64,000 nucleotides of DNA. Origin: an uncultured Methylomirabilota bacterium (GTDB taxonomy: Bacteria > Methylomirabilota > Methylomirabilia > Methylomirabilales > 2-02-FULL-66-22). Location: contig CAWJSJ010000002.1 in assembly GCA_963845565.1 (NCBI GenBank), positions 1,696,001 to 1,760,000 on the forward strand, read 5' to 3'. Under the pieces are notes generated by a model. The model made no database searches, was not told the DNA's origin, and saw only the letters and a list, made by a program, of their open reading frames with translations. Positions 9,639 through 29,889 of this stretch are shown one piece after another; within the stretch, counting starts at the first letter, position 1; each line of letters begins with the position of its first letter. A program made the position numbers and the translations under genes.

Positions 9639-10496
9639 ATGTTTGCGAAAGTCCGCACCTATCTGGAGATGATCCGGTTCTCCCATACCGTCTTCGCGCT
9701 TCCCTTTGCCTTTATGGGAGCGATCCTGGCGGCGGGCGGGATTCCCTCGAGCCGGACGCTCTGGTGGATCCTGGTGGCCATGGTGGGGGCGCGGAGCGGC
9801 GCCATGGGAATGAACCGGATCGCCGACCGGCGCCTGGACGCGCTCAATCCTCGAACGCGCGAACGGGCACTGCCCAGCGGCCAGATCGGCCTCGGCGGAG
9901 CCATCGTCTTCGTCGCGGCGGCGTTCGTCGTCTTCCTGGTGGCGGCGTGGATGTTGAATCCACTCTGTTTCGCGCTGGCGCCGGTCGCGGTCCTGATTGT
10001 CTGTGGGTACTCCTACACGAAACGATTCACCACGGGCTCCCACCTGATACTGGGGCTGTCCCTGGCGCTGGCCCCCATCGGCGCCTGGATCGCGGTCCGG
10101 GGAGAGATCGGCGCACCTGCGCTGGTTCTCGGGCTGGGGGTCCTGTTCTGGGTGGCCGGCTTCGACATCGTGTACGCCTTCCAGGACGTCGACTTCGATC
10201 GCCGAGCCGGCCTCTTCTCGATTCCCGCGTGGCTCGGGACGGCCAAAGGCTTGATGATCGCCGGGATCTTCCACGCCCTGACGGTCTGCTGCCTCGCCCT
10301 GCTGATTCCCCTGCTTCGGCTGGGGCCCATCTACGGGATCGGCCTCCTGTGTGCCGCAGGTCTGCTCCTCTACGAGCACGGCCTCGTGCACCGCCACGGC
10401 CTGGCCAAGCTGGACATGGCTTTCTTCAACGTGAACGGCGTCCTGAGCATCGGGATGTTTCTGGCCACCGCGTTGGATGTTCTTCTCGTCAATTGA
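9639..10496 (+). CDS. UbiA-family polyprenyltransferase (MqnP-like, menaquinone biosynthesis)
   Basis: RFSHTVFALPFA, NRIADRRLDALNPRT, YSYTKRFT, GFDIVYAFQD and AFFNVNG motifs. Confidence 0.9.
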   Translation: MFAKVRTYLEMIRFSHTVFALPFAFMGAILAAGGIPSSRTLWWILVAMVGARSGAMGMNRIADRRLDALNPRTRERALPSGQIGLGGAIVFVAAAFVVFLVAAWMLNPLCFALAPVAVLIVCGYSYTKRFTTGSHLILGLSLALAPIGAWIAVRGEIGAPALVLGLGVLFWVAGFDIVYAFQDVDFDRRAGLFSIPAWLGTAKGLMIAGIFHALTVCCLALLIPLLRLGPIYGIGLLCAAGLLLYEHGLVHRHGLAKLDMAFFNVNGVLSIGMFLATALDVLLVN

Positions 10497-25026: not shown

Positions 25027-25042
25027 AGCAATGAGTGTGCCA
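25027..25042 (-). promoter_or_regulatory. sigma54 -24/-12 promoter of kor operon
   Basis: TGGCACACTCATTGCT, a consensus match. Confidence 0.8.
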
Positions 25043-25345: not shown

Positions 25346-25377
25346 AAAAGCGGGGACCCGCAACGCGGGCCCCCGCT
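25346..25377 (-). terminator. Intrinsic terminator after rhodanese
   Basis: Minus strand AGCGGGGGCCCGC-GTT-GCGGGTCCCCGCT followed by TTT. Confidence 0.65.
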
Positions 25378-25404
25378 CGAGCGGCAGGCGGCGAGATGTC
25401 GTCG

Positions 25405-25860
25405 CTACTTCTGGACCGGATACCCGGCCTTTTCCCAGCCGGCAACGTAGCCCGCAGCCAGATGCTTCACGTTGGTGTAGCCCTTGAAGCTCAAGGCCTC
25501 GGCAACGTAGCCCGACCGAACGGCCGACGCACAGACGACCACGATCTGCGCGTTCTTGTCCTGGGGGAGCTTGGCCAGGCTCTTGGGCACCTCGCGCACC
25601 GGAACGTTGAGGGCTCCTTCGATCCGGCCCCCCGCGAACTCGTTCGGCTCGCGCACGTCGAGCAGGAAGACCTGCTCGCCGGAGTCCAGCTTGGCCTTCA
25701 GGGCATCGCCCCGGATCCCGTTGAATCCTTGCGGAAGAGTCTCAAGGTACTTGGCGGCCTCCTCCCAGGCGGCGCCGTTTTCGGTGGCGCCGGAGGTGGT
25801 GACCCCCGCGGCCACGACCAGGATCGCGGCCAAAAGGACGAAAGACAGTTTCCGAATCAT
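25405..25860 (-). CDS. Secreted single-domain rhodanese (sulfurtransferase)
   Basis: Signal peptide MIRKLSFVLLAAILVVAAG, LLDVREPNEF, active-site loop CASAVRS, GWEKAGYPV; AAGGAG RBS. Confidence 0.88.
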   Translation of the reverse strand: MIRKLSFVLLAAILVVAAGVTTSGATENGAAWEEAAKYLETLPQGFNGIRGDALKAKLDSGEQVFLLDVREPNEFAGGRIEGALNVPVREVPKSLAKLPQDKNAQIVVVCASAVRSGYVAEALSFKGYTNVKHLAAGYVAGWEKAGYPVQK

Positions 25861-26014
25861 CAGGCGTCTCTCCTTTCTTGATACATGTTCATGCCGCACA
25901 GCGCGTCCCATCCGGAACACCCTCCTCTGCGCGAAAGCGCCGGTCTCTTGCCGGCGCGGTTACAAGGTAAAGTCCGTAGCCGATACCTTCAAGCGAATTC
26001 TTCACCACGGCCCG

Positions 26015-27304
26015 CTACCGACGGGGCGGGATGGTCGGAACGGCGACCTTGCTGTTGGCCGCGGCCTCCGTCGGGTTGAGATCGCCCGGCTTCAGGAAGA
26101 TCCGCGCATTCCCATGACAATTGTTGCAACTCGCCGTGCGCGGCGTCTTCCGCTGGATGTTGTGAGGGACGGTGTCCTTCCAGGTCGGGACCGCGTCGTA
26201 GTTCGGCAATGCGTCCTTCACCTTTGCGTCCAGCATCGTCCGGACGGTCGGCGTGTGCCGGAGCAGGGTGTACTGATAGGGGGAGCCAGGGTGAGCGGTC
26301 TTGCCGATCTTGAACTGGAGCGAGGATTTCGCCCCCGTACCCAAGTGGCAATTTTCGCAGCCCCGATACACGGTCGAATGGCATACCACGCAGTTGATCT
26401 TGTCGCCGTGGACCGCGTGCTGCTCGATGGACGATCCGGCCGCCTTGGCGTTGGGGTGGCAACCCAGACAGGACGGCTTGCTCTTGACTGCATGCCGGTT
26501 CGGATAGGCGGTGCCATCCCCGTGGAGCTGGGTGGCCGGATGGCAGGCCACGCAATCCATCTTGGCTTTCTGCCAGTGGATGTCCGGCGGGAAGCCTTCG
26601 TTCTTCCCGGTGTATTCGGGGAATACTCGGCCGCCGTGGCAGGTCCCGCAGGCGTCCTCCATCGGGGGTCGCTTCGCAAAGAGGTGCCCATCCATCAGGC
26701 CGCCGCGCGCCGACTTCGCCTTGCTGACGTGGCAGTCGCCGCAGCTCGCATGGCAACCCTGACAGGCCTGCTTGAACACGGGTTGGACGTCCGGCCAGCG
26801 GTGGGCCGAGACCAGCTTGAGGAAATTCTCGTCACCACGCACGGTGAAGTGCAGGCTGGTCTTGACGTTCGCCACCTCCTTCTCGTGGCAGGCGGCGCAG
26901 GCGGAATCCGGGTCTCGCGAGGGGCGCGCCACCAGGCCCTTGTGCGCGGCCTCCTTGCCCCCGGCCTTGGGATCGCCCTTGTGGCACGTCTCGCAGCCAT
27001 CCATGGCATGCGTGCTGGTCAGGAACGCCGGCTTCACCAGGTAGCGCTGGTACGGTTCCCCCGACGGGGGCGGAGGCCCGCTTCACCCTTCGCCTTCTTC
27101 GGTGGACGGGGGATCGGGCGGGGTGAGCGGTTTCAGTTTGGCCGCGTCGGTGTGGCAGGCGACGCATTGCGAGGGGGCCGAATCGGCCGCGTCGATCGAA
27201 CCGATCCCGCCCAGGACAAGTAGGCCGGCGAAGAGGAGGATGAGAATGATGACGGCACGCTGCCGCCCCAGGGGAGGGCACGCATCGATTCCGTGTGGGT
27301 TCAT
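26015..27304 (-). CDS. Periplasmic multiheme cytochrome c (11 CxxCH), probable selenoprotein (Sec74 at TGA 27083-27085)
   Basis: ORFs 27083-27304 and 26015-27037 are in the same frame, joined by EEGEG-TGA-SGPPPPSGEPYQRYLV. Signal peptide is only in the upstream part. Hairpin lies 12 nt after the TGA. Confidence 0.8.
27058..27082 (-). promoter_or_regulatory. Candidate bacterial SECIS for cytochrome Sec codon
   Basis: UGA-AGCGGGCCUCCG-CCCCC-GUC-GGGGG; loop starts with GU, 17 nt after UGA. Confidence 0.6.
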
Positions 27305-27391
27305 GAAGATGACTCCACGTTTGAGGACGCCTCGGACCCGGCCGCGAGACCCCGCCGAGGGTGCAGTCTCATTTGAACTGTTGTGGAATAC

Positions 27392-27407
27392 AGCAAAACA
27401 TGTTCCA
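27392..27407 (-). promoter_or_regulatory. sigma54 -24/-12 promoter of cytochrome-rhodanese operon
   Basis: TGGAACATGTTTTGCT, GG-N10-GC, ~90 nt upstream of ATG 27304. Confidence 0.7.
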
Positions 27408-27495
27408 TCACCGTTCGAATGCGCACGCGTTTCCGTAACCTCTTGTCAATGCAAGGTTAATCGTTACTCAGCGGCCGATGCCAGGCAAACCATCG

Positions 27496-27602
27496 GTGTT
27501 GCATGCAACACGAATACGGACACAAATTATCGACAGATAGTCTGAAGCACTCTCAAAATCAGTTAAATAGATCCACTCGATAAGGTGCAACAGGCGTTGC
27601 AC
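27496..27602. promoter_or_regulatory. Candidate enhancer (UAS) palindromes
   Basis: Perfect GTGTTGCATGCAACAC (27496-27511) and GTGCAAC-AGGC-GTTGCAC (27585-27602). Confidence 0.55.
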
Positions 27603-27672
27603 GGGAACATTGATCAGACCGGAGAGCAGATGGTGAGAGACGGGGATGACGCTCTGGCGTGATCCATCGCGA

Positions 27673-27699
27673 GGGGCCGACCGACCCCGGACGTCAGTG
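27673..27699 (-). promoter_or_regulatory. Candidate bacterial SECIS for small zinc-ribbon protein
   Basis: UGA-CACUGACGUCC (11 nt)-GGGGUC-GGUC-GGCCCC. Confidence 0.6.
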
Positions 27700-27897
27700 T
27701 CACCCGCAGTCCGACCACGAAGGATCCCAAGGGATGATCTCGTCGGGGGGGTGGGTCGCTTGCCCTTCTCCTCGAGGGTCCGGGTAGATCAGCGTCAGGC
27801 CGCAGAGCGGGCACCGGACGTCGAGTTGGTTCGGGTTCTCGGCCGATATCAGGAATGCGCGCTGGCAGGCGCGACACGTCACGGTGGTTTGCAGCAT
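27694..27897 (-). CDS. Small zinc-ribbon protein, probable C-terminal C-G-U-H selenoprotein (65 aa if TGA 27700-27702 is stop, 67 aa if Sec)
   Basis: GGGAG RBS; CRAC...CPLC; ends WSDCG-TGA-CAC-TGA; starts 21 nt after the activator stop. Confidence 0.65.
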
Positions 27898-27918
27898 GCA
27901 AGTTCTCCCGGAATCCGC

Positions 27919-29661
27919 TCAGGAGCCGACTGGACCGGATGGGACCGCGATGCCCCAGCGCCGCATCTTTCGCCAGAGCGTCGTGCGATCCATTCCGAGC
28001 CGAGCCGCCGCGAGGCCGCGATTCCACCGGGTGGACTCCAGCGCGCGGAGCAGATGCGCCTTTTCATCCGCCGCGGGGACCGGAGTCCTGGATGGGTCCG
28101 GGCGCTGTGGGTCGCTCTTTGGGCTCGCCAGGATCGAGCGAGGCAGGGTGTCCGGCTCGATCATGCCACCCCGGGAGCAAACCATAGCATGCTCCAGGGC
28201 GTTCTCCAATTCACGGATGTTTCCCGGCCAGTCATGGTCTAGGAGAACGGACATGGTGTGCGGCGAGACGGCCAGGGCCCTCCCCTTGGCTTTGGCGGCG
28301 AAGCGATCCAGCAGGGATTCGACCAGCGCCGGGATGTCGGCCTTGCGTTCCCGTAAAGCGGGGATGTGGATCGGGATCACGTTGAGACGATAGTACAGGT
28401 CCTCGCGAAACCTCCGTTCGCGCATCAGTTGGGGCAGGTCGCGATGCGTGGCGGCAATCACCCGGACGTCCACCTGGATGGTCTCGTTGCCTCCGAGCCG
28501 TTCGAATTGCTGCTCCTGGAGCACGCGCAGCAGCTTGACCTGGACGGTCGGGCTCAGATCACCGATCTCGTCGAGAAAGATGGTGCCTTTGTCCGCCAAC
28601 TCGAAACGCCCCTTCCGCTCCTTGATGGCGCCCGTGAAGGCGCCCTTTTCATGGCCGAACAGCTCGCTTTCCAGGAGCGTTTCGGGAAGCGCGGCGCAGC
28701 TCACTTTGACGAACGGGTGGCGCTCCCGTGGGCTGAGGTAGTGCAGGGCGTGGGCGAAGAGGTCCTTGCCTGTTCCGCTCTCTCCCTGGAGCAGGACCGT
28801 GGAGTCGCTGTCCTTGATCATCTCCACCAGATCGAAGATCTCGCGCATTCGGGGGTGCGCCCCGATGATTTGCAGGAAGGGGGTTCGCCGTCGGCGCTCG
28901 TCCACGATCTGCTCGATCTCCCGAAGATCGCGGAAGGTGCAGACGGCGCCGAGCGTAGACCCAGCCTCGTCGCGGAACGGGCCGGTGCAGACGCTGAGCG
29001 GGATCGTCCTTCCGCTCGGTCCAACGATGGCGAGCTCCCGATTGCGGACGACCCGGCCTGTCCGCAGCGTCTCCTGGAGGGGCGAGGCCGCGCCGCAGAT
29101 CTCGGCCGGGAGGAGGTCTGCGCAGGGCTTGCCCAGGACCGTGCCGGCCCGGCGATCCAGGACGCGCTCGGCGGTGCGATTCAAGCTGGTGATCCCACCG
29201 TCTCGATCCACGGTGAAGACGCCCTCGGCGATGGAGTCGAGGACCGCTTGCACCTTGTTGCGCTGCTCGCGCAGCTCGTCGATCAGGCGATTGATGTGCG
29301 TGACCACGCGGATGGTCTCCACCACGCCGACCACATCCCCCTTGGCGTTCTTGAGGGGGGAGGTGTTGATGCAGATGGGGGTGTCCGTTCCGGAGGCGTC
29401 CTTGGCCAGGACGTTGAACGTGGTCACGGTCTCGCCGCCCCGGAATGAGCGCTCGAAGGGGCAGCGCGCCGTGGCGCAGATTTCGCTCTGGAGGATCTGG
29501 CCGCACGACCGGCCGACGGCTGAGGTCTCGGGATGCCCCGTGAGGGTCTCGGCCGGTGCGTTCAGGGTGATGAGTCGCTGCTCGGCGTCAATGGTCAGGA
29601 CGGAGTCAGGGATGCTCCGCAGGATGTCCAAGACGTTGAGGGGTTCGATCGAAATGGGCAT
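27919..29661 (-). CDS. sigma54-dependent activator (PAS-PAS-AAA+-Fis HTH)
   Basis: Two PAS domains, GESGTGKD, ESELFGHEKGAFTGA, FLDEIGD, WPGNIRELEN and AAARLGMDRTTLWRK motifs. Confidence 0.95.
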   Translation of the reverse strand: MPISIEPLNVLDILRSIPDSVLTIDAEQRLITLNAPAETLTGHPETSAVGRSCGQILQSEICATARCPFERSFRGGETVTTFNVLAKDASGTDTPICINTSPLKNAKGDVVGVVETIRVVTHINRLIDELREQRNKVQAVLDSIAEGVFTVDRDGGITSLNRTAERVLDRRAGTVLGKPCADLLPAEICGAASPLQETLRTGRVVRNRELAIVGPSGRTIPLSVCTGPFRDEAGSTLGAVCTFRDLREIEQIVDERRRRTPFLQIIGAHPRMREIFDLVEMIKDSDSTVLLQGESGTGKDLFAHALHYLSPRERHPFVKVSCAALPETLLESELFGHEKGAFTGAIKERKGRFELADKGTIFLDEIGDLSPTVQVKLLRVLQEQQFERLGGNETIQVDVRVIAATHRDLPQLMRERRFREDLYYRLNVIPIHIPALRERKADIPALVESLLDRFAAKAKGRALAVSPHTMSVLLDHDWPGNIRELENALEHAMVCSRGGMIEPDTLPRSILASPKSDPQRPDPSRTPVPAADEKAHLLRALESTRWNRGLAAARLGMDRTTLWRKMRRWGIAVPSGPVGS

Positions 29662-29889
29662 CGCGCACCTCGGGGTTCGCGCCCCGGCTCGGACGATCCA
29701 GGACGGGCCTCGCAGATCGTCGCGGGGCTGATGGGGCGTATCGAAGGGAGTGTAGCATGCTACCGCAAGATGGCAATCGGTCCGGAAGGTGTCGTTCGGG
29801 TCGGCGGACAGGCGGCGGTTCGGAGTCGGTTGCGACATCGGCACCAGGCTCCGGGCGGCTGCCGGGGCCTGGTGCCGCGAATGCGTCGC

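Follow-up and report, generated by a model that had tools for sequence, protein, structure and literature searches.

Two genes interrupted by in-frame TGA codons, one for a small CxxC protein and one for a cytochrome with 11 hemes, lie between the genes of a sigma54 enhancer-binding protein and a rhodanese at positions 25346 to 29661 of a stretch of 64,000 nucleotides from an uncultured Methylomirabilota bacterium (assembly GCA_963845565.1, contig CAWJSJ010000002.1). Are these codons read as selenocysteine (Sec), and what does the cassette do? The whole stretch is referred to as the window, and coordinates without a prefix are positions in it. A first-pass annotation had listed the activator, zinc ribbon, palindromes, promoter, cytochrome, rhodanese and terminator in this order on the minus strand, and all parts are present as described. 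From sequence comparison we propose, with a probability of about 0.5, that in the periplasm the cytochrome reduces polysulfide (sulfane sulfur) and the rhodanese serves as its sulfur carrier.

Probable selenocysteine codon of the cytochrome

The cytochrome gene (26015..27304, minus strand) encodes a predicted exported selenoprotein of 429 amino acids, with 11 CxxCH motifs if its single TGA is read through. This codon (27085-27083, minus strand) corresponds to residue 74 in the motif G-E-G-U-S-G between hemes 1 and 2. Standard translation splits the gene into 73 and 340 amino acids, as the first-pass annotation had expected of gene callers. A hairpin of the selenocysteine insertion sequence (SECIS) type at 27058..27070 (minus strand), with a stem of 5 bp and a loop G at nucleotide 21 past the TGA, agrees with the bacterial model of PMC13188914, in which the loop G lies 16-37 nucleotides past the UGA. 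An independent contig of short reads (run X4, 26838-28278) spans both this codon and the TGA of the zinc-ribbon gene, and no difference is listed there.

The gene was found in 13 of 251 genomes of the phylum, and one in-frame TGA stands at the same site in all 12 of the other genomes carrying it (the context was viewed for 11). A metagenome scan gave at least 578 relatives of the cytochrome among 599 candidates. From these at least 578 matches we used the best 80 (66 clusters at 90% identity, GC content 39-74%), a selection biased towards Sec types; TGA occupies the Sec site in 80/80 loci, within the motif G-E-G-U-G-G, a G is found at nucleotide 21 in 78/80 and a hairpin in 76/80, as compared with 26% and 15% of 9,221 control TGAs. 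Forty full-length proteins were selected among the 150 best of 608 representatives, and 14 of the 40 carry Cys at the Sec column. Many other protein matches start just past the Sec site, as truncation at the TGA predicts. Trp was seen at or beside the Sec column in five full-length homologues (P0022, P0032, P0046, P0088, P0147), which may represent TGA read as Trp under another code.

The TGAs of the cytochrome, the zinc ribbon and selD are all followed by a hairpin whose stem has five or more base pairs, with a loop G at nucleotide 21; of the 3,705 TGAs closing long open frames, 17 are followed by such a hairpin. The folding energy of the SECIS regions was not significant (z 0.51, 0.87, -0.29 and 0.69), and Rfam gave no match to a SECIS family, all 7 matches being far under the gathering scores. 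The support for the SECIS elements is therefore positional and comparative, since folding energy alone singles out neither region. Taking the phylum genomes, the metagenome loci and the Cys-type homologues together, it is very likely from sequence that the TGA is read as Sec, and the first-pass call for this gene stands very firmly.

Family, fold and hemes of the cytochrome

No NCBIfam model matched the cytochrome above its cut-off, and the ExtKL and GSU2204 models gave no match at E<=1. The model of octaheme tetrathionate reductase (OTR), TIGR04315, scored 12.8 bits, its cut-off being 375; this score, and 11 hemes instead of eight, place the protein outside that family. Searching the PDB with the single sequence gave no match. 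A structure model built from 79 sequences contains few short strands and has a predicted local distance difference test score (pLDDT) of 90.9 overall and 61 in the Sec block, which is a low-confidence stretch. The solved chain nearest to this model is 1SP3, the OTR of Shewanella oneidensis (Z 9.7, root-mean-square deviation 4.5, 270 aligned residues; next chain Z 4.8). Foldseek gave no match to the model at E<=0.001, and its comparison with 1SP3 (E 0.017, template modelling score 0.36) is that of a distant relative. The cytochrome profile matches OTR at E 9.6e-10, with hemes 3 and 4 aligned to the first two OTR CxxCH motifs. MccSep, a Sec-containing cytochrome discussed below, was not among the matches of either fold search, which is no evidence either way on its fold.

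The 11 hemes are accompanied by just nine near-invariant non-motif His residues and by His350 in 68 of 79 sequences, so one or two hemes are likely to be without a distal His. Arg349 is invariant in the alignment and, like Arg226 and Trp375, belongs to the near-invariant residues that are not heme ligands; apart from the Sec74 site no conserved non-motif Cys was found. The second heme of OTR is catalytic and Lys-ligated, and no invariant Lys was seen ahead of heme 4, which aligns to the second OTR motif. A truncated homologue of the cytochrome occurs in the cultured Desulfovibrio ferrophilus (WP_126378598.1).

Activator, promoter and exchanged cargo

The activator gene (27919..29661, minus strand) encodes a sigma54 enhancer-binding protein of 580 amino acids, with Pfam domains in the order PAS-PAS-AAA+-HTH and a GAFTGA motif. 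A GTG start further 5' (29844) was rejected, the orthologues starting at the ATG at 29661. Downstream of the activator and the zinc ribbon a sigma54 -24/-12 promoter site, TGGAA-N7-TTG, lies at 27392..27407 (minus strand); the pattern occurs 21 times genome-wide, 0.0008 being expected per 400 nucleotides, and rpoN is present in the genome. About 90 nucleotides 5' of the -24 box is a proximal GTTGCA-TGCAAC palindrome (27496..27511), and a distal GCAAC/GTTGC palindrome (27585..27602) is less regularly conserved; both are candidate activator sites. Four of the palindrome hexamers fall within 110 nucleotides, where the genome frequency predicts 0.07 per 300 nucleotides.

Orthologues of the activator, with 63-76% identity over PAS-PAS, were found in 8 other genomes. 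In four cases the cytochrome and the rhodanese follow (G016:C31, G012, G192, G221), which answers the first-pass suggestion to look for conserved synteny. At two further places (G016:C15 and G010:C205), with activators of 71-74% identity and the same GCAAC and -24/-12 sites, an exported rhodanese is instead followed by a trio of a molybdoenzyme, an FeS protein and a cytochrome b. Ten promoters of the cytochrome and Psr types, chosen because a -24/-12 site was seen, could be aligned, and in all ten TGGAA-N7-TTG and the upstream proximal GCAAC are invariant. In G004 and G005 the contig ends behind the activator gene. Both cassettes, with duplicated flanks, are found in G016, which might be a mixed bin. 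In G009 (L007:1442-2075) the activator is truncated and frameshifted, the zinc ribbon, promoter, cytochrome and rhodanese being intact.

The exchanged molybdoenzyme matches PDB entry 2VPW at E 1e-302. This entry was deposited as thiosulfate reductase, and we take it to be Thermus PsrA; the best NCBIfam match of the molybdoenzyme is thiosulfate reductase PhsA, under the cut-off. Both copies (L151:7045-9321, minus strand, in G010:C205; L120:4137-6415, minus strand, in G016:C15) carry an in-frame TGA at residue 396, in a Gly-Gly-X loop and aligned with the loop Cys of 2VPW. The TGA is a candidate Sec outside the cofactor-ligand region, judged by alignment; its hairpin lies beyond nucleotide 21. 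A literature search, through its listings, gave no description of Sec in PsrA, and the genome of the window has no close PsrA homologue. Though limited to two copies, this exchange of cassettes is the strongest functional clue found.

The PAS-A domain of the activator contains Cys53-x8-Cys62-x4-Cys67 and Cys97, invariant in 7/7 aligned orthologues. In OrpR a [4Fe-4S] cluster is bound by the PAS residues C52, C61 and C65, and the protein is active at low potential (PMC8359166). By analogy, the PAS-A cysteines may form a redox sensor of the Fe-S type. Searching the literature for a PAS regulator of the sigma54 class that responds to sulfane sulfur gave one paper, which was unrelated.

Rhodanese partner and regulation in the wider family

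The rhodanese gene (25405..25860, minus strand; PF00581) encodes a predicted exported single-domain protein of 151 amino acids, with a hydrophobic N-terminus and a lone Cys110 in the active-site loop CASAVR, as in the Sud-like carriers. The partnership was counted in the metagenome loci having at least 800 nucleotides of downstream DNA (n=54; 26 short loci were set aside). A rhodanese is downstream of or fused to the cytochrome in 44/54 and within the locus in 51/54, as checked with Pfam; fusion proteins include P0030, P0061 and P0207.

The sigma54 control proposed by the first-pass annotation holds for the lineage of the window and not for the family as a whole. The activator is near the cytochrome in 4 of the 36 metagenome loci with 3.5 kb of upstream DNA, and the site pattern occurs in 4 of 72 cytochrome loci; family-wide sigma54 control is ruled out by these counts. 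Among the phylum genomes, no -24/-12 site was found before the cytochrome in G001, G002, G135 and G008. Sigma54 control is thus lineage-specific, the other loci having LysR or CsoR/RcnR-family regulators. Repressors of the CsoR/RcnR family are near five homologous loci (L047, L079, L091, L118, L043), and a LysR resembling a selenium-metabolism regulator, together with formate dehydrogenase genes, is upstream of four (L048, L049, L053, L103). The LysR before some homologues comes close to the selenium-metabolism family model (241.8 bits, cut-off 250). These neighbours suggest other regulators and a possible formate-linked electron donor.

Predicted zinc-ribbon selenoprotein

The small gene at 27694..27897 (minus strand) encodes a predicted zinc-ribbon-like selenoprotein of 67 amino acids, with the pattern CxxC...CxxC and the end Asp-Cys-Gly-Sec-His. 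Its first TGA (27702-27700, minus strand) is followed by CAC and by the stop TGA (27696-27694). A SECIS-type hairpin at 27673..27688 (minus strand) has a 6-bp stem and a 4-nucleotide loop whose first base is a G at nucleotide 21 past the first TGA, the same position as in selD. The two signals of UGA plus hairpin in the cassette, given as about 620 bp apart by the first-pass annotation, are spaced by 617 nucleotides between the TGAs.

Strong matches to this protein were found in 5/251 genomes (6 copies, all from one genus), and all six copies end Asp-Cys-Gly-TGA-His/Arg-TGA; three weak matches in other genera have no such Cys-Gly-TGA ending. Over the six copies 36/36 cells of the hairpin are paired, with a compensatory change in 2/6 pairs. 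Two of 500 shuffles reached the same covariation, a comparison in which related sequences can exceed shuffles. The related proteins form 17 clusters, of which 15 end with Asp-Cys-Gly; no cluster has Cys at the Sec place or extends past the Gly (candidates of 34-130 amino acids were searched). Comparison of Sec/Cys homologues therefore does not support Sec in the zinc ribbon. We nevertheless regard reading of the first TGA as Sec as highly probable, and the first-pass call for this gene is well supported by the six copies and their covarying hairpin. The second TGA was rejected as a second Sec codon: no hairpin lies at the right spacing and the frame beyond is not conserved.

The gene does not match NF041197 (cut-off 40 bits; the best score elsewhere in the genome was 14.4 bits), no curated family or NCBIfam model was matched above its cut-off, and the ESM Atlas gave just unnamed clusters at 0.91-0.92, which is uninformative. 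From sequence, the cassette probably encodes here a second selenoprotein, one that stays in the cytoplasm and carries a Cys-x-Sec redox pair at its C-terminus.

Selenocysteine machinery of the genome

The first-pass annotation had made its proposal dependent on a Sec machinery. The nearest relatives of the organism carry the labels Ca. Methylomirabilota or Rokubacteria. The genome contains selA (578 bits), selD with an in-frame TGA of its own and tRNA-Sec, as well as rpoN and cytochrome c assembly genes. The selB gene (G000:C4:5502-7391) is present, with three 1-nucleotide insertions relative to G016. Genes near selB on the same contig also carry small indels, so the frameshifts are likely assembly errors. 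Of 13 relatives tested, 11 have selB above the cut-off (two of the 11 partial) and two, G006 (76% complete) and G019, gave no selB; selA is present in 4/5 relatives tested, G019 included.

Scanning the genome for TGA followed by a hairpin gave 39 candidates, many of them noise, and several with catalogue motifs (TxxU, UxxC) and a hairpin at nucleotide 21-22. Additional in-frame TGAs with the hairpin at nucleotide 21-22 were seen at C2:743181, C2:1467704, C2:2522158, C2:2494387, C2:1995324, C4:236797, C5:201280 and C1:369680 of the genome (G000). By their motifs we presume these genes to be thioredoxin-, peroxiredoxin-, YeeE- and reductase-like. The organism looks rich in selenoproteins, on these predictions; a Methylomirabilota genome with 63 predicted selenoproteins has been described (Deng et al. 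2026, as cited in PMC13188914).

Proposed function and alternatives

In the mechanism we propose, an Fe-S cluster bound by the PAS-A cysteines would let the activator respond to a low redox potential; the activator would then bind the GCAAC sites and switch on the cytochrome-rhodanese transcript. Both products would be exported. The rhodanese would load polysulfide sulfur as a persulfide of Cys110, like Wolinella Sud, and the flexible Gly-rich arm with Sec74 would attack the S-S bond. The resulting selenosulfide may be carried to a heme that has no distal His; heme 4, which corresponds to the second OTR heme, is a plausible candidate. A donor whose gene lies elsewhere would feed electrons into the heme chain, and HS- would be released. 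A precedent is MccSep, in which polysulfide is reduced with Sec and heme (PMC13510729). That the pair reduces polysulfide is made likely by the relatives that place a PsrABC-type polysulfide reductase in the same slot. Of the periplasmic redox module proposed by the first-pass annotation, the sulfur role is supported by the coupling to the rhodanese and by the exchange for PsrABC. The cassette is not self-contained as that annotation had it: it encodes no quinol oxidase, cytochrome b or other membrane donor, and the activator is near in the few loci counted above.

Several observations weigh against a polysulfide reductase. In 26 of the 40 full-length relatives neither Cys nor a readable Sec stands at the column, which holds other residues or gaps; the Sec residue is therefore dispensable in part of the family, and the best 80 metagenome loci lean towards Sec types. 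G001 and G002 have the Sec cytochrome and no rhodanese within 11-16 kb. In G014 the activator orthologue directly precedes a 2-oxoacid:ferredoxin oxidoreductase operon, with no cargo between, and the two copies of the Psr exchange come from one genus. The resemblance between the Sec loop of the cytochrome and the PsrA loop is short and Gly-rich, and the window protein has Val165 where 69/79 sequences have Arg. The mature protein has 3.8 kDa per heme, within the range below 5 kDa per heme that a review assigns to electron-transfer cytochromes (PMC7096707). Finally, selB as assembled carries its three insertions.

The same enzyme could have another chalcogen substrate, reducing tetrathionate, thiosulfate or selenite, or it could run oxidatively on sulfide or polysulfide. 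This we consider rather unlikely, although its nearest fold is a tetrathionate reductase, the exchanged molybdoenzyme has PhsA as its top NCBIfam match (under the cut-off), MccSep also reduces selenite (PMC13510729) and the LysR close to the selenium-metabolism model precedes some homologues. The closest solved relative of the exchanged enzyme is 2VPW, an exported rhodanese with a single Cys fits a Sud-like polysulfide carrier (PMC6378623), and MccSep is inactive on thiosulfate and tetrathionate (PMC13510729); these three points speak for polysulfide. An electron wire or store feeding the rhodanese or another enzyme, with Sec74 as an axial heme ligand or redox switch, would account for the low mass per heme, the little regular structure and the replacement of Sec/Cys by Trp, Tyr, His, Leu or Met in many relatives; Sec could also supply the missing distal ligand of one or two hemes. 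The idea seems unlikely to us, since such a wire would leave unexplained the near-invariant Arg349, Arg226 and Trp375, which are not ligands, the likeness of the whole chain to a catalytic octaheme enzyme, the exchange of the cassette for a complete terminal reductase and a Sec loop that is predicted to be flexible.

Two further alternatives concern the zinc ribbon. The first-pass annotation had suggested that this small selenoprotein tunes the regulator, that is, binds the activator and adjusts it to redox or selenium status. The gene starts 21 nucleotides past the activator stop, with a ribosome-binding site of its own, and follows the activator in 4/6 copies. Against such tuning, seven genomes have the activator orthologue without a zinc-ribbon match (G004, G005, G010, G012, G014, G192, G221) and two have the reverse (G008 and G019, the latter also without the cytochrome); the zinc ribbon is intact beside the broken activator of G009; a thioredoxin-like gene with CxxC and an extra Cys takes the slot between activator and cargo in G004, G006, G010 and G012; and the activator has its own candidate sensor in the invariant Cys53/62/67/97. 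The suggestion is therefore not retained and appears improbable; an accessory thiol/Fe-S redox protein, not a required partner of the activator, is likely. The thioredoxin-like slot genes are at L011:1810-2145, L008:49-384, L010 and L151 (about 9980-10320), and the L151 copy has a sigma54 site of its own. The zinc-ribbon TGA might also be an ordinary stop, giving a protein of 65 amino acids ending in Cys-Gly, with a hairpin that is terminator-like or due to chance; in an extreme form the cytochrome TGA would be a stop as well. Long open frames end in TGA more often than in any other stop (3,705/6,330), none of the 17 related clusters has Cys for Sec, all six copies come from one genus, selB was not found in G019, and no RNA contig covers the gene. 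This we hold to be very improbable, because hairpin spacing and loop G are as in selD and the cytochrome, compensatory changes occur, the His/Arg codon and second TGA are kept in 6/6 copies, no T-run follows the hairpin, and the 15 clusters stop exactly at Asp-Cys-Gly. A stop in the cytochrome would leave ten hemes without a signal peptide, and its Cys homologues are continuous.

A wider joint reading is tentative, and we would put it forward as possible at most: the cytochrome would be a widespread, uncatalogued 11-heme selenoenzyme of the OTR fold, a third kind of polysulfide reductase interchangeable with the unrelated PsrA, and the zinc ribbon a new selenoprotein family serving this system in the cytoplasm. 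Cytochrome and PsrA would then be interchangeable behind one Fe-S-sensing activator and one rhodanese because both use a Gly-rich swinging arm with Sec or Cys, which would lift sulfane sulfur off the rhodanese and carry it to the metal centre.

Surroundings and transcripts of the cassette

A weak sigma70-like promoter, 5' of the activator gene at 29749..29776 (minus strand), is a consensus match only (9/12 positions, extended -10). At the other end an intrinsic terminator-like hairpin (25348..25378, minus strand) has 14 pairs and a folding z of -2.64. RNA contigs from two runs of one study (X15 and X16) span the rhodanese and parts of the cytochrome 3' of its TGA; such contigs reveal neither level nor strand, and DNA carry-over is possible. 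None spans the zinc-ribbon gene or the promoter.

A second sigma54 -24/-12 site at 25027-25042 (minus strand) precedes a 2-oxoacid:ferredoxin oxidoreductase operon in the order delta-alpha-beta-gamma (24940-21831, minus strand), and in several relatives the cassette sits between this operon and the upstream genes. A hemerythrin-domain gene (PF01814; 34853-35380, minus strand) is separated from the cassette by a sugar ABC transporter operon in the window; in G008, G009 and G019 its counterpart lies directly 5' of the zinc ribbon or activator.

Relation to known systems and implications

Among the closest known systems is MccSep/ExtKL of Geobacter sulfurreducens (GSU2937-2936; NF040886; PMC13510729), likewise a multiheme c cytochrome of the periplasm, with a single Sec encoded by UGA and a SECIS within the gene. 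It also occurs in Sec and Cys forms, and a rhodanese-like extH belongs to the ext cluster (PMC5877670). MccSep has five hemes, and its Sec325 belongs to an Ig-like domain at the C-terminus, beside a His/Cys heme, unlike the 11 hemes and N-terminal linker position of Sec74 here. The cytochrome gene gave no match to NF040886 (cut-off 250 bits; gene searched at E<=1, and genome search), and the cassette has no ext porin, Rieske or cytochrome b genes. Homology to the ext cluster, which the first-pass annotation had mentioned as a parallel, is not supported; the 37-bit match to ExtM (cut-off 800) is generic CxxCH. With OTR (1SP3, TIGR04315) the cytochrome shares the best structural match and the profile match with hemes 3-4 on the first two motifs, and it differs in heme number (11 versus 8), in its 17% identity, and in an N-terminal heme and Sec arm that have no counterpart in 1SP3. 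A GenBank-annotated Sec form of TIGR04315 is listed in PMC13188914.

PsrABC with a Sud-type carrier (2VPW-2VPZ; Wolinella Sud) occupies the same regulated slot in the two relatives, together with the exported single-Cys rhodanese, and PsrA too has Sec/Cys in a Gly-rich loop, away from its N-terminal FeS motif. It is a molybdoenzyme of unrelated fold that has FeS and membrane subunits of its own. The OrpR protein of Desulfovibrio vulgaris (PMC8359166), compared by Cys positions alone, is a sigma54 activator beside its target promoter with C52/C61/C65 against C53/C62/C67; the window protein has the spacing x8-x4 instead of x8-x3, the fourth Cys97, two PAS domains and a different palindrome. Small 'star' or dual-CXXC selenoproteins (NF041197, FmdB family, KCU-star, UXX-star; PMC13188914, Table 1) resemble the zinc ribbon in being small, in having CxxC, or in having Sec near the end with the SECIS past the stop; the zinc ribbon is distinguished by the missing NF041197 match, the ending Cys-Gly-Sec-His/Arg and its restriction to one genus.

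The cytochrome entries in the table of PMC13188914 are ExtKL, GSU2204 and Sec-OTR. Neither the cytochrome nor the zinc ribbon is in this 119-family table, though supplements and newer catalogues could list either, and neither is among the deep-Sep or GOS new families as given in the excerpts of PMC12013277 and PMC2398784. Literature searches gave no description of an 11-heme Sec cytochrome. By analogy, the cytochrome may work like MccSep and Psr while belonging to neither family; the exchange of cassettes is new here.

Anaerobic reduction of elemental sulfur is just partly explained, and the role of MccSep was demonstrated in 2026 for Geobacter. The exchange of cassettes offers a testable substrate for the cytochrome and a testable role for the non-ligand Cys/Sec loop in PsrA, and homologues of the Cys type can be expressed without Sec machinery. 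The cytochrome family, with its at least 578 metagenome matches and wide GC range, appears in database records as a hypothetical protein cut short, and a likely enzyme of sulfur respiration is therefore being overlooked in genome surveys, Methylomirabilota included.

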